A stretch of DNA of 64,000 bases from positions 10,781 through 74,780 of the forward strand of contig JAIPIG010000003.1 of assembly GCA_021734805.1 (NCBI GenBank), in the 5' to 3' direction. Below the pieces are notes generated by a model that was not told where the DNA came from, ran no database searches, and saw nothing but the letters and a program-made list of their open reading frames with translations. Shown here in pieces: positions 2,085 to 61,975 of this stretch. Position 1 is the first letter of the stretch. The number at the start of each line of letters is the position of its first letter. The stretch comes from Simkaniaceae bacterium. GTDB taxonomy: Bacteria > Chlamydiota > Chlamydiia > Chlamydiales > JACRBE01. A program made the translations under genes and the position numbers.

Positions 2085-2117
2085 GTGTACCGTGAGTGAT
2101 TCAAGAGCGGTATATAC
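2085..2117 (+). repeat. Family-1 repeat, minimal copy (termini only): GTGTACCG-TGAGTGATT-CAAGAG-CGGTATATAC
   Basis: It carries the same terminal motifs as the long copies at 22052 and 56614 (TATACCG/GAGTGATT ... TTCAAGAG/CGGTATAC) but lacks the internal ~100 bp. Confidence 0.5.
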
Positions 2118-2128
2118 AGAGATATAAT
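2100..2128 (+). promoter_or_regulatory. Sigma-70/66-type promoter candidate for the 951-aa TPR gene: TTCAAG-17 nt-TATAAT
   Basis: The hexamers and 17-nt spacer were read directly. The -10 ends 19 nt before the ATG at 2148, so the leader would be very short. This is a sequence match only. Confidence 0.4.
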
Positions 2129-2147
2129 TACAGCAAAGGTATTCATT

Positions 2148-5003
2148 ATGCAATGGGTAAATGAAAGCAATAAGTTTCGTTTCTCAAAACTTCCAATTGT
2201 GATTTGTGTAGCTCTCTCGGCATATCAAGGCGGGCTTTTTTCTTTAGATAACCAAGAACTCCCAACAACCATGGAAGTTAAAAGTGAAGACGAAGCTTTT
2301 CTTGTTAGGCGAATTGCCGAATTTTGGAAGGATAGAGATTATGTTTTAGTGAAAAGACAGGTTCACTCATTCCTTGAAAAATATCCCTCATCGCCGATCA
2401 ATGATCAGTTAAGAGGAATTTTAGGGGATTTGTATTTACAAGAAAAAGACTATACAGCTGCCCTTGCAGCCTATTCTCAGATTTCAGATCCTTATATTCA
2501 AGAAAAAGTCATTGTCAATACTTTGCAGTGCTATTATGAGCTCAACGAGTACGCATCTCTGGCAAAAGTAGGTAAACCTTACCTTCAAATTAACTCTAGC
2601 CGGATCGGAGATCGCAAAGAAGAACTCTACTTCTTAGTTGCAGAATCTCTATTTAGACAGGCGCTTGATACAAGTGATCCCTCTATGAAAGAGGATTTAG
2701 CATCACAGGCTCGCCCTCTTTATGAAGAAATTAAGGAAAGTGGATTTAGCAAACATTCTAAATTAGCTTTAGCCGAAATTTATAACATCACAAAAGATTA
2801 TGAAAAAGCATCGGGATATTATTTAGAAGTTGCCCATGCTTATCCTGATCAAAGCGAAGAGTTGCTTTCACAGGCGGCCCTTTCACAAGCTGCCTATGAT
2901 CCACAGCTCGCGATTCACACTTTCTCTCAAATCATCGATATGAAAGGGGAGAAAGCCAATGAAGCTTCAACTAACAGGCTCATCCTGTTCTTCCAAGAAG
3001 AAGAGTATGATAATGTCATTAAGTACTATCCTGAAGTTGTTCTATCAATGGGTAATGAGAAAAAATCAACGATTGATTATGTCGTGGGACGCAGCTATTT
3101 TGCCCTACATGACTACAAAAATGCCTCTGATTTTCTCAATAATTTCATCGATTCACAAACGATACCCACCCCCCATTTGAAAAATGCCTTGCTGATGCAA
3201 CTCAATTGCACACAGCAAAATGGCAATGATAACCTCTGTGATAAAACCATCTCTCGATTTAAGCAACATTTCGCAGATGACAAAGAGTACAACCAAGCTC
3301 TTTTTATTCACGCAATGATGCTCAAGGGGCGCGGGGATTTAAGAGGAGCGGAAGATGAACTCGCTCAAATTATAAAAGATACTTCCTTTGAAGATAAAGA
3401 AAGCCTTTATCTCGAATACGGTCTTGTCTGCCACGAAAACAATAAATGGAAAGAGAGTTATAATACGCTCAAAACATATATTGCCTCTTACAAAGACGGC
3501 GAGCATAAAAATGTCGCTTGGAAATATTTCCTTTCATCGTCACTCAATCGATTGAAACACCTCGATGAAAATGAAGGCTATTCAAAAGCTCAATTTTATG
3601 ATGATTTGGCTCTTGTCTTGAATGAACAATCCATGACAAAAGAAATCCTCAACCCCGAAGAGGAAAGGGATTGCCGCCTGCTTTCTGCTAAAACAGTATA
3701 TGAACTCAAAAGATATCCTGTGGCAGCCATGCAACTCGAAGCCTATATTCAAGACTACCCCAATGACCAAAACTTAGGTGAAGCCCACCTCATTTTGGGA
3801 ATTTCACACCAAAATCTCGATTCAGATCCTGAACTCTTCTATAGTAATATTGAAAAAGCTTTGGCTCTAAATCCCGATTTGACAGATCAATCATCGCTAC
3901 ATTTACAGCTGTATAATGCTTATCTTGCGAAAATTGATTTGCTATCACAAACCACTGCTAAAAACAGTATGAATCCTGAAACAACGGGAAAATTATATGA
4001 TTTAGCGGCTGAACACCTCTATAAAGCTGTTCAACTTGATAATAATAAGATTAAGCATGAAAATAAATTATGGCTCGCCAACCACTATTATCTTAAAACC
4101 AAATTAGATGATCACACTGTGGCAAGTGCAGAGTATATCAAGCGCTCACACGATCTTTACCGATCTCTTCTCACAGAAAACAGCAACCGTCTCATTGTTC
4201 TCAATGACGGTAATATTTTCTTAGAAGCGGAAGTGCTCAAATTTGCTGAAATCCTTGAGATGAAGCAGGATCATTCCTTTAAAATGCATATGTTAAAATC
4301 TCTTGCCGAACAGCAAACTCGCAATCATGGTCTTTCTTGGAATTATCAATTGCAAACACTACTTGAGCTCGCTCAATCTTACGAAGTGTTAAGAGATAGA
4401 GAAAGCGCCCTTGATACGTATGTATTCATTCAAAATGCATCTAGAGGAGCACCTTCTTATATCAACGATTTTGCAACACTTCACGCTTCACGCTTGAAGT
4501 TCAATTTGATGGAGAACGATTTTAAAAATGAGAAGAACGAGCAAATCCTTAGCATGCTCAATCATCTCAAAGATCTACAGATCAAAAAATCCCCTGCATC
4601 AGAGCCTCTACATCTCGAGGCAGCTCTAGAGTATGCATACATTCGCTCTCATATTTGTGAGGCGCAAAATAAAGAAGAGCAATATCTCTTCTTCTTGAAT
4701 CGCTTGAAGGAGGATTTCCTCTCTCAAGATGATGCCATGGTTCGCGAATACCATTCAAAACTGGCTCAAGATCCTAAGGCGCGCGCGCTTTACTCCACAT
4801 ATATGACTTATGTTGATGCAGAAATACTGCGCACAAAAGCCAAAATAGAATATAAGAAAAACCGTTTAGCCGTAGCTGAAGATCTCAATTCGCAAGCGTT
4901 GAGCAAACTCGCTGAGGTTAAAAATAGCGATGTAGCCACTCCTTATCTCAATGAAAAGGTACAGGAGAGCATCGGTCAAATCGACTATCTCAATCACTCC
5001 TAA
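2148..5003 (+). CDS. Large TPR-repeat protein with N-terminal hydrophobic signal/anchor
   Basis: 951-aa uninterrupted ORF. The N-terminus FSKLPIVICVALSAYQGGLF is hydrophobic, and TPR-like units recur throughout (e.g. GDLYLQEKDYTAALAAYSQI, AEIYNITKDYEKASGYYLEVA, GRSYFALHDYKNASDFL). Confidence 0.8.
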   Translation: MQWVNESNKFRFSKLPIVICVALSAYQGGLFSLDNQELPTTMEVKSEDEAFLVRRIAEFWKDRDYVLVKRQVHSFLEKYPSSPINDQLRGILGDLYLQEKDYTAALAAYSQISDPYIQEKVIVNTLQCYYELNEYASLAKVGKPYLQINSSRIGDRKEELYFLVAESLFRQALDTSDPSMKEDLASQARPLYEEIKESGFSKHSKLALAEIYNITKDYEKASGYYLEVAHAYPDQSEELLSQAALSQAAYDPQLAIHTFSQIIDMKGEKANEASTNRLILFFQEEEYDNVIKYYPEVVLSMGNEKKSTIDYVVGRSYFALHDYKNASDFLNNFIDSQTIPTPHLKNALLMQLNCTQQNGNDNLCDKTISRFKQHFADDKEYNQALFIHAMMLKGRGDLRGAEDELAQIIKDTSFEDKESLYLEYGLVCHENNKWKESYNTLKTYIASYKDGEHKNVAWKYFLSSSLNRLKHLDENEGYSKAQFYDDLALVLNEQSMTKEILNPEEERDCRLLSAKTVYELKRYPVAAMQLEAYIQDYPNDQNLGEAHLILGISHQNLDSDPELFYSNIEKALALNPDLTDQSSLHLQLYNAYLAKIDLLSQTTAKNSMNPETTGKLYDLAAEHLYKAVQLDNNKIKHENKLWLANHYYLKTKLDDHTVASAEYIKRSHDLYRSLLTENSNRLIVLNDGNIFLEAEVLKFAEILEMKQDHSFKMHMLKSLAEQQTRNHGLSWNYQLQTLLELAQSYEVLRDRESALDTYVFIQNASRGAPSYINDFATLHASRLKFNLMENDFKNEKNEQILSMLNHLKDLQIKKSPASEPLHLEAALEYAYIRSHICEAQNKEEQYLFFLNRLKEDFLSQDDAMVREYHSKLAQDPKARALYSTYMTYVDAEILRTKAKIEYKKNRLAVAEDLNSQALSKLAEVKNSDVATPYLNEKVQESIGQIDYLNHS

Positions 5004-60674: not shown

Positions 60675-60865
60675 AGGTTTTCTCCATCTGTTGATATATT
60701 TAAAAATAATAAATTTACATCGATCTTCCTATATTATCTATCTGGATTGTAATAATGAAGAGGCAATTTTATAAAAACTTAAGAGAACTCCTTTCAGTGT
60801 AAAAAAAGATAGACAAAAAAGGGGTATAGATTTTCTTTTAAAAAAACAAATTGTTAGGTGAAGAC

Positions 60866-61846
60866 ATGGTTTATCTTGCGGGGGATATTGGTGGGACAAA
60901 GACCCATTTAGCCTTTTATCATTTAAATGATACTGAATATAAAAGCTTTGTATCTCAAAAATTTCATAGTCACGAATATCCGGATCTCATTTCAATTGTC
61001 CGTATATTCTGTGAGAAATTTCCACAAAAAATTAAAAGAGCTTGCTTTGGAGTTGCCGGTCCTATTCGTGACAATATTTGTAAGGCAACAAATTTACCGT
61101 GGGTCATTGATGCAAATAAAATGGAAAAAGAGTTAGGTATTGAAAAGATTTTCCTTATTAACGACTTGGAAGCAAATGCGTATGGGATAAAAACCCTTAA
61201 AGAGAAAGATTTTTTTACTCTAAATGCTGGAATAGAAGAAGTTAAAGGAAATCAGGGGTTGATTTCAGCGGGAACGGGACTTGGAGAGGCCGGTCTTTTT
61301 TACAATGGAGAAGAAACAATTCCCTTTGCTTGTGAAGGAGGCCATGCTGATTTCGCTGCAAGAAATGAAGTAGAAATGCGACTTTTTGAGTTTTTAAAAC
61401 AAAAATACGAACACGTTTCCTATGAAAGAATTTTATCCGGAAAGGGATTTTGGGAATTATACCGGTTTTTAACTCAGGTTGAAAAAATGGCTAAGTGTCA
61501 ATTGGTTGAAGAATGTCCTAAAGATCAAGATCCTTCTGTTATTATCACACAGCAAGGAACTGAAAAATACGATAGAACTTGTATGGAAGTAATGGATCTT
61601 TTTTGTTCAATTTATGGTGCCGAAGCTGGGAATTTAGCGCTTAAATACCTGGCAATCAGTGGAATTTATGTTGGTGGTGGAATTGCACCTAAGATTCTAA
61701 AAGCCCTTCAAAAAGGGGGGTTTATTGAAAACTTTACTAAGAAGGGTCGGTTTAAGGAATTATTAGAGTCGATTCCTGTTAAAGTGGTTCTTGACCAAGA
61801 AACTGCACTTAAGGGAGCTGCATATTATTGTATCCGATCGAAATAA
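60866..61846 (+). CDS. glk: Glucokinase
   Basis: MVYLAGDIGGTKTHLAFY (ATP-binding DxGGT), plus LINDLEANAYG and GGGIAPKIL typical of the Glk family. The ATG at 60866 follows AGGTGAAG, and the track start at 60851 is TTG. Confidence 0.85.
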   Translation: MVYLAGDIGGTKTHLAFYHLNDTEYKSFVSQKFHSHEYPDLISIVRIFCEKFPQKIKRACFGVAGPIRDNICKATNLPWVIDANKMEKELGIEKIFLINDLEANAYGIKTLKEKDFFTLNAGIEEVKGNQGLISAGTGLGEAGLFYNGEETIPFACEGGHADFAARNEVEMRLFEFLKQKYEHVSYERILSGKGFWELYRFLTQVEKMAKCQLVEECPKDQDPSVIITQQGTEKYDRTCMEVMDLFCSIYGAEAGNLALKYLAISGIYVGGGIAPKILKALQKGGFIENFTKKGRFKELLESIPVKVVLDQETALKGAAYYCIRSK

Positions 61847-61851
61847 GATAA

Positions 61852-61975
61852 GCGGAGGCCAAGCAGCAATCTCGTTCCCCTATCCGGGGAGCTCTCAAGC
61901 GGACCGGATGATATGATAGTCAATATTCCCTGACTATCGAAAAATTCCCTCTATTCATGGAGGGGATTTTTTGAT
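61852..61975 (-). repeat. Family-1 dispersed repeat, long copy in reverse orientation; its hairpin module doubles as a likely glk terminator
   Basis: The reverse complement aligns over about 125 bp with 22063-22185 (AAAAAATCCCCTCCATGAATAGAGGGAATTTTT...AGGGAATATTGACTATCATATC...CCGGTCCGCTTGAGAG...GAGATTGCTGCTTGGCC). On the + strand, AAAAATTCCCTC-TATTCATG-GAGGGGATTTTTT ends in a T-tract. Confidence 0.85.

Follow-up and report, generated by a model that had tools for sequence, protein, structure and literature searches.

What are the short, similar sequences that recur between the genes of a 64-kb stretch of Simkaniaceae bacterium DNA (contig JAIPIG010000003.1; the whole stretch is hereafter called the window), and how did they come to be there? 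The original prediction described them as a modular, variable-length dispersed repeat, Family-1. Our analysis confirmed Family-1 as a dispersed intergenic repeat, by profile and covariance-model matches far below chance and by the enrichment of its patterns and termini. These repeats are lineage-specific, small and non-coding, and they are probably best read as a non-autonomous mobile element in decay that resembles the transposable elements known as MITEs (miniature inverted-repeat elements). The window contains ordinary chlamydial housekeeping genes (RecBCD, RecA, RpoD (30336-32009), ThrRS, a type II secretion cluster, MOMP-like porins, and UPF0137), the G+C content is 36-42%, and the intergenic fraction is 8.6% by a gene map drawn from gene tables.

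Copies, modules and termini of Family-1

The long copies A and B (Table 1) align as originally claimed, with 72 nt ungapped at 79% identity and ~150 columns when gaps are allowed. A profile built from A and B alone and run with nhmmer returned four other copies from the window, with E-values from 3.8e-9 to 2.8e-5; copy D was marginal taken alone. The covariance model called for in the original prediction was likewise built from A and B and returned the same copy list. Neither this model nor a seven-sequence profile found anything beyond the listed copies in the window and four loci of relatives or, for the covariance model, in the left flank. The flanking DNA was scanned over 7.85 kb on the left (covariance model and motif) and 0.75 kb on the right (motif), and these 8.6 kb held no further Family-1 copy; ~72 kb of host-genome DNA was covered, and copy counts refer to that stretch. 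The two-box pattern GAATRTTGRCYATC-N25-55-GAGATTGCWGCTT matched three times in the window, compared with 0.00 times in shuffles. The window total is seven profile copies, all of which sit in its intergenic DNA, and 4-6 end fragments.

The copies predicted at 29708, 34698, and 56954 were recovered by the profile built on those at 22052 and 61852. Those at 2085, 29925, and 55192 are weaker members, assigned by termini and short subterminal boxes only and not by alignment. Copy H was absent from that list. The "hairpin cores" predicted at 301 and ~22575 were not found by nhmmer, but both match the core CCCATGAATAGGG within two edits; this core has 12 such matches in the window compared with 2.0 in shuffles, six of them, including these two, being intergenic.

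The full element is ~165 bp long and its modules follow in the order hairpin 1, hairpin box m3, m4 (CCGG-CCGCGTGAGAG), hairpin 2, and m6 (GAGATTGCWGCTT). Hairpin 1 consists of an A-tract, a stem, and a T-tract; hairpin 2 is short, G+C-rich, and of differing sequence between copies. The model originally proposed, in which one such element would have given rise to shorter forms by internal deletion and truncation, holds together when the copies are compared. The copies range from 33 to 165 bp and have no coding capacity, the open reading frames (ORFs) across A and B being only 20-52 aa long and none being common to both. A small protein starting at an ATG in the hairpin-1 loop was also rejected: it reads MNRGDF... 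in A, is stopped after 12 codons in B, and F, H, and D have no ATG at that point of the loop. The 5-codon mini-ORFs of the other strand are a by-product of the loop and the T-run.

In public collections, the strict two-box pattern had no match among GTDB representative genomes and JGI metagenomes, which do not include the host genome itself. Looser patterns for the hairpin and for m3 gave, in the same collections, chance-level single matches in unrelated phyla or one repeated coding segment, and none of these matches convincingly fits the family profile. Plasmid and phage collections contained no match.

The element is bounded by 8-bp inverted termini, GTATACCG/CGGTATAC, which can be parsed equally well as a TA duplication followed by TACCG. 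The motif TATACCG occurs 12 times in the window, compared with 2.07 expected, and 10 of the 12 occurrences are intergenic. Inward-facing termini were found at four loci (I, F', J, and D in Table 1), with arm spacings of 15, 27, 52, and 60 nt. Exact inward-facing TATACCG pairs within 150 nt number two (29773/29807 and 55192/55259), compared with 0.003 in shuffles; the pairs of I and D have one mismatch each, in the left arm. The end 16-mers TATACCGAGAGTGATT (left) and TTCAAGAGCGGTATAC (right) each match four times at ≤3 mismatches, compared with 0.53 and 0.33 expected, respectively, one left-end match (62482) being a chance match in coding sequence. As to which ends are kept, A has its left terminus, B a degenerate right one, and D both. 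The F' palindrome contains TTGAAT-17-TATACT, a sigma-70-like consensus match that reads into tRNA-Ala; going by this one match, a -10 box may be provided by the outward-facing TATAC(T/A) of a terminus, as in front of tRNA-Ala.

These termini bear on the possibility that the family was never mobile and consists of terminators and regulatory cassettes that recombination or gene conversion carried from one intergenic region to another, or that the TATACCG palindromes are protein-binding or DNA-uptake sites. Hairpin 1 does share its general form with unrelated terminators of the genome, copies do lie at gene ends, and a competence system with uptake sequences would use CoiA, RecA, RecBCD, and a type II secretion/type IV pilus-like cluster, all of which have genes in the window. 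However, an arm spacing that varies from 15 to 60 nt is unsuited to a dimeric operator, and on this ground an operator for a dimeric regulator was rejected. The 12 sites in 64 kb are nearly all intergenic, whereas uptake sequences are dense and also occur in genes, and a motif so sparse and so confined to intergenic DNA is unlikely to serve in DNA uptake. Moreover, m3, m4, and m6 have no terminator role yet travel with the hairpin, and the extra block beside tRNA-Pro (see below) is a discrete insertion. We regard this group of explanations as improbable. Avoidance of GTATAC as a restriction site was also considered and rejected because this site occurs 12 times, compared with ~3.7 expected.

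The same ends might recall REP/BIME-like palindromic units, which would owe their spread to a tyrosine transposase of RAYT type (IS200/IS605-like) that works on hairpins of single-stranded DNA, and which would form BIME-like mosaics as in E. coli. Units F' and I are short palindromes with the fixed head GTATACCG...CGGTATAC, the family is mosaic in composition, variable in length, and intergenic, and its hairpin-forming ends would suit single-strand recognition. Nevertheless, the Family-1 head reads GTAT, whereas most REPs begin with GTAG or CGTC (PMC3733652), the arms stand 15-60 nt apart and do not form the one tight 20-40-bp palindrome described there, arrays of alternating-orientation units are lacking, and no RAYT gene lies within the window. 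This origin has little likelihood in our view.

Table 1. Family-1 copies, related fragments, and lengths of the gaps that hold them. Positions are those of the window; L003 and L140 are loci of relatives.
Feature	Coordinates	Strand	Parts and position	nhmmer match (E-value)	Gap length
A, reference long copy	22052..22191	+	From left terminus: TATACCG + GAGTGATT 22052-22067; hairpin 1 22068-22101; m3 AAGGAATATTGGCTATCA 22109-22126; m4 CCCGGCCGCGTGA 22132-22144; hairpin 2 22146-22165; m6 GAGATTGCAGCTT 22163-22175; TTCAAGAG 22184-22191; no right terminus, another repeat abuts at 22192
B, second long copy	61830..61972	-	Hairpin 1 61940-61972; m3 61914-61938 with perfect 8-bp stem; m4 61892-61907; hairpin 2 61874-61891; m6 61861-61873; degenerate right end TTATTTCGATCGGATAC 61830-61846, resembling right end of J (TTATTTCAAGCGGTATAC)
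C	34698..34768	+	Hairpin 1, then m4 and hairpin 2; hairpin 1 begins within stop codon of gene 33995-34699; whole 76-nt gap to convergent recD occupied	34695-34765, + (2.8e-5)
D, short two-ended form	56614..56680	+	TATACCAGGAGTGATT, decayed hairpin 1, CTCTTGAATCCCGAGCGGTATAC; upstream of tRNA-Pro	56616-56650, + (0.41)
E	56930..57040	+	Small hairpin and T-run 56930-56947 at hairpin-1 position, differing from hairpin 1; m3, m4, hairpin 2, m6 in 56958-57028; after tRNA-Pro	56952-57040, + (3.8e-9)
F	29708..29763	+	Hairpin 1 29708-29742; partial m3 29750-29763; between aminotransferase start and tRNA-Ala	29707-29762, + (3e-6)
F'	29772..29814	.	Near-perfect palindrome GTATACCG...CGGTATAC, 24 nt upstream of tRNA-Ala
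G	29925..29946	-	Lone right end, 12 nt downstream of tRNA-Ala; reverse copy of right end of D, 88% over 25 nt
H	30243..30325	-	Hairpin 1 variant 30285-30314, starting 22 nt past rpoD stop codon on rpoD strand; m3 30259-30283; m4 30243-30253	30325-30243, - (3.4e-7)
I, minimal form	2085..2117	+	Two ends joined: GTGTACCGTGAGTGATT + CAAGAGCGGTATATAC
J	55192..55266	+	Exact termini TATACCG...CGGTATAC flanking 60 nt of unrelated A+T-rich DNA
Weak relative	298..323	-	Hairpin with core CCCTATGAAATAGGG, after stop codon of response-regulator gene
Weak relative	22575..22596	-	Hairpin with core CCCATGAAATGGG
Possible degenerate end cluster	55821..55868	.	GGTATAC, TTCGAGAGCGATATAT, ATATGCCGCTCGTGA
Gap rpoD to tRNA-Ala			Holds G, H		54 nt (L003) vs 423 nt (window)
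Gap tRNA-Ala to aminotransferase			Holds F, F'		107 nt (L003) vs 172 nt (window)
Gap DHDPS to next gene (126-aa gene)			Holds J		47 nt (L140) vs 183 nt (window)
Gap glucokinase to porin			Holds B		267 nt (L140) vs 377 nt (window)
Divergent gap of copy A			Holds A		190 nt (L003) vs 644 nt (window)

Occupied and empty gaps in related genomes

The window was compared with four syntenic loci from three relatives (~84 kb): L002, an ENA locus whose RpoD is 91% identical to that of the window; L003, a JGI locus with an RpoD 87% identical; and L140 and L141, two loci of GCA_030408475.1, "Rhabdochlamydiaceae bacterium". Gene order is conserved over most of the window in these loci. No member of Family-1 was found in the 84 kb by profile, covariance model, or motif, TATACCG occurs there once, and the orthologous gaps of all four loci lack the elements. 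Gaps that hold copies in the window are longer than their counterparts (Table 1). The situation is clearest at tRNA-Pro, which is 97.6% identical between the window and L140: window DNA from ~190 nt past this gene aligns (72%) with L140 DNA starting 5 nt past it, and a discrete extra block of ~185 nt (56870-57061) that contains copy E lies 3' of tRNA-Pro in the window and is absent from L140.

From these data we infer transposition as the probable origin. A transposase encoded elsewhere in the genome would have moved the element into A+T-rich intergenic DNA, in particular at gene ends and next to the two tRNA genes. Later, internal segments would have been lost from some copies (56614 and 2085) and whole ends from others (34698, 29708, 30243, 56930, and 29925), and copies would have been interrupted by other palindromic repeats (22192). 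The original suggestion of a MITE family in decay is the best fit, and the evidence for it is indirect: the inverted termini, the lack of coding capacity, the strictly intergenic placement, the deleted and truncated forms, the nesting with palindromic repeats, and the absence from the gaps of relatives. The size of the element, below ~500 bp, and terminal inverted repeats of 7-8 bp also agree with what is expected of a MITE.

Several observations weigh against this interpretation. A target-site duplication was not established: no direct repeat is common to both flanks in the four two-ended copies, apart from the possible outer TA of TATACCG, the block containing copy E is not bounded by TATACCG, and its flanks show a resemblance of 6-7 nt (AACTA and a base or two) that is too weak for a target duplication. 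No transposase or integrase is encoded among the window genes, and the autonomous element with the same termini that the original prediction proposed to look for was not found within the window. The termini are very short (7-8 bp), and the copies were counted in ~72 kb of the genome. Generic terminators of the same genome share the A-tract/stem/T-tract form, and part of the resemblance among the copies of hairpin 1 could be convergent. Finally, occupied and empty sites were compared with distant relatives only, whose coding DNA is 65-75% identical; because of this distance, the absence in relatives implies gain in this lineage and not recent movement.

Both tRNA genes of the window, tRNA-Ala-GGC (29838-29912) and tRNA-Pro-GGG (56789-56865), have family pieces on either side; element right ends point at them, and the same tRNA loci are compact in the relatives. 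This arrangement could be an insertion preference or a mere tolerance of insertions. In the gap between rpoD and tRNA-Ala, positions 30076-30140 contain GAGTGATT and, 36 nt on, a different A-tract/stem/T-tract hairpin (AAAAAGGGCA...TGCCCTTTTT), which may represent another decayed element with a different hairpin. The corresponding gap of L002 (11820-12000 and 12180-12290) carries its own G+C-rich long palindrome and an ORF starting with ~15 copies of the heptamer GGCATCA, implying that relatives carry different intergenic fillers.

The degenerate right end of copy B extends over the stop codon of glucokinase and the four codons before it; the C-terminus of the protein reads ...AAYYCIRSK* in the window and ...AAYYCHNAS* in L140; the insertion of copy B may have replaced these codons, as the two endings suggest. 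Two CGGTATA sites in the same orientation (59435-59441 and 59490-59496) lie upstream of a 90-aa ORF (59138-59410). The first codons of this ORF are overlapped by AGTGATT and AAAATC motifs, and its N-terminus is unalignable with the 98-aa L140 orthologue.

Other palindromic repeats adjoin copy A and occur elsewhere in the window; pneumococcal BOX, RUP, and SPRITE have likewise been described in clusters (PMC10969869, PMC3049150). A second repeat family is represented by a 93-nt inverted repeat at 54097-54189, whose 34-nt arms are 97% complementary and which contains the 23-mer CTCACCTTACGCAAAAATGAAGG; a third copy of this 23-mer (22199-22221) directly abuts the right side of copy A. A near-perfect palindrome of ~170 nt (14879-15048; 58-nt arms 81% complementary and outer 27-nt arms 89%) lies at the 5' end of ORF 14457-15068 (203 aa). 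The L141 orthologue of this ORF is 151 aa long and stands 3 nt from the upstream pseudopilin gene, and for this reason the palindrome looks like an insertion that lengthened or disrupted the ORF. Two further long palindromes are single-copy in the window: 22254-22441 (43-nt arms at 84%), next to copy A and under the doubtful ORF 22192-22446, and 33417-33593 (48-nt arms at 79%), between a DUF3592 gene and rpsT.

Parts of the window were matched at 99.99-100% identity by Logan contigs of SRR12088349 and by a contig of GCA_021734195.1. Contigs of other assemblies break off in palindromes and within copy B; those of two other assemblies of the organism end inside the 54097-54189 palindrome. Such breaks were considered as a sign of further copies and set aside as weak evidence, because palindromes alone can break de Bruijn graphs. 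Apart from the repeats, an O-methyltransferase gene (Methyltransf_2; 13440-14429) lies between three small tandem paralogues and the type II secretion cluster and has no counterpart at that position in L141; no further members of this small tandem paralogue family were found.

Hairpins and a possible RNA-level function

Hairpin 1 gave stable folds in A, B, F, and H, and F folded together with F' reached z = -4.9. In a terminator scan, hairpin 1 was terminator-like in A on the minus strand and in B, where it is located downstream of glucokinase, on both strands (18 pairs); its A-tract together with its T-tract makes it symmetrical. Since hairpin 1 looks like an intrinsic terminator whichever strand is read, a copy would probably end or insulate transcription, the clearest candidates being H (just past the rpoD stop codon), C (in the convergent gap at 34698), and B (past glucokinase). 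A terminator role for some copies is probable, judged by how hairpin 1 is built and where it lies in these three.

A second hairpin with a copy-specific stem, as originally described, is present in four copies. The variable segment between CGYKTG and ATTGC (TTCAATC in C) folded better than its own shuffles in all four (p = 0.004, 0.016, 0.03, and 0.026; ~5e-5 when combined by Fisher's method). The stems are CTCCC/GGGAG, TCCCC/GGGGA, CCCC.GC/GC.GGGG, and GAGA/TCTC; the 5' arms of A and B are identical (CTCCC), with B pairing in another register. The accompanying claim of compensatory changes was not upheld, the stems looking like different small hairpins at one position and not like textbook compensatory pairs.

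These folds raise the question of whether Family-1 is a structured RNA element (a cis-acting 3' untranslated region, leader, or insulator) or a small RNA, possibly of MITE origin, with selection acting on the hairpins. The dispersed copies would then be functional genes or elements and not transposon debris, comparable to the QMITE-derived small RNAs of Coxiella. Up to three hairpins do occupy the same positions across copies, and the hairpin-2 segment folds well in spite of its differing stems. Hairpin 1 differs between A and B by two both-sided changes, in A, E, and H the m3 stem stays paired only by way of G-U pairs on one strand, and several copies lie at expected transcript ends (those following rpoD, the gene that ends at 34699, and tRNA-Pro); small RNAs derived from MITEs are known (PMC10969869). 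On the other hand, the pairing of hairpin 1 in six aligned copies was no better than in controls: 72.7% of cells pair, compared with 71.7% in shuffles, and the covariation score of 0.212 (0.184 in shuffles) was reached by 152 of 500 shuffles, with partners slid by one column doing nearly as well. In the three-copy consensus of m3-m6, both-sided changes are limited to two pairs, and the covariation term is positive, which is unfavourable; both tests rest on 3-6 copies and are underpowered. Truncation points differ between copies, the copies do not keep one orientation to their neighbours (A, B, D, and F point away from the start of the gene beside them), a conserved promoter is lacking, and nothing is conserved in the loci of the relatives. 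At gathering scores, only the two tRNAs of the whole window passed in Rfam, and at permissive E-values the best match around copy A (E = 0.14) was far below the gathering threshold. The hairpins are real, and with so few copies selection on RNA is inseparable from the inheritance of palindromic DNA. The RNA-level function raised in the original prediction is therefore unsupported, and we consider an RNA element unlikely.

The two ideas can also be joined in a mobile RNA module, in which the transposon would carry a bidirectional terminator and a folded downstream domain (the m3 hairpin, an outer helix, and the variable hairpin 2) kept by the host for an RNA-level function. Such a module might insulate transcription units, set 3' ends beside tRNAs, or make small RNAs, and the differing hairpin-2 stems would then reflect true compensatory evolution. 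We put this forward as a rather unlikely extension of the mobile-element reading. Two minor candidates were rejected: a sigma-54 promoter in m3, the GG-N10-GC spacing of which fits copy A alone, and a strand asymmetry of G-T versus A-C mismatches as a pointer to the RNA strand, which was uninformative at ~4 versus 3 independent events.

Significance and known counterparts

The interest of Family-1 lies mainly in the apparent novelty of such repeats in Chlamydiota. Classical chlamydiae are almost repeat-free (PMC2878342), the phylum goes wholly unmentioned in a review of prokaryotic MITEs from 2024 that makes no reference to chlamydiae (PMC10969869), and, judged from a limited search of open-access papers, such repeats have apparently not been described before in this phylum. 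If a MITE-like family indeed fills several gaps within 64 kb, some environmental Simkaniaceae would carry active or recently active genome parasites that reshape gene ends, tRNA flanks, and perhaps terminators. The repeats would also explain the positions at which short-read assemblies of the organism break, and they could be used as strain markers. The finding has no bearing on a long-standing open question, and elements of this kind are well known in other phyla.

Closest in form are the pneumococcal SPRITE, the modular BOX, and ERIC (PMC3049150, PMC10969869). Like Family-1, SPRITE of S. pneumoniae is a small, A+T-rich, terminator-like interspersed repeat with a U-rich tract, the long core duplex of which is closed by AAAA...TTTT; folds and terminator scans showed the same layout in Family-1, with its long duplex, closing A- and T-runs, and U-rich tail. 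Both occur near gene ends and between convergent genes, cluster with other repeats, and have no established target duplication. The likeness is one of form only; with hosts of different phyla, homology in sequence is unlikely. Family-1 departs from SPRITE in its additional conserved boxes, its second and third hairpins, and its separate GTATACCG termini, and no more than 2-3 Family-1 copies are found between convergent genes.

BOX (S. pneumoniae; PMC3049150) and ERIC/IRU (enterobacteria; PMC10969869) are, like Family-1, modular or variable in length, with units that can be missing or inserted and shorter forms arising by internal deletion, and they are intergenic, non-coding, strongly folding if transcribed, and MITE-like at their ends. 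BOX modules are arranged in tandem (A-Bn-C), whereas those of Family-1 occur once each in a fixed order, and the inverted repeats of ERIC are much longer than those of Family-1; neither BOX nor ERIC is similar to it in sequence. Correia of Neisseria and QMITE1/2 of Coxiella burnetii, an obligately intracellular organism, are MITEs found in bacteria associated with eukaryotic hosts, and these elements adjoin genes and can supply promoters, terminators, RNase sites, 3' untranslated sequence, and small RNAs (PMC10969869, PMC5896051). Correia has 26-bp terminal repeats, an IHF site, and a TA duplication, compared with the 8-bp termini and the putative TA duplication and promoter of Family-1.

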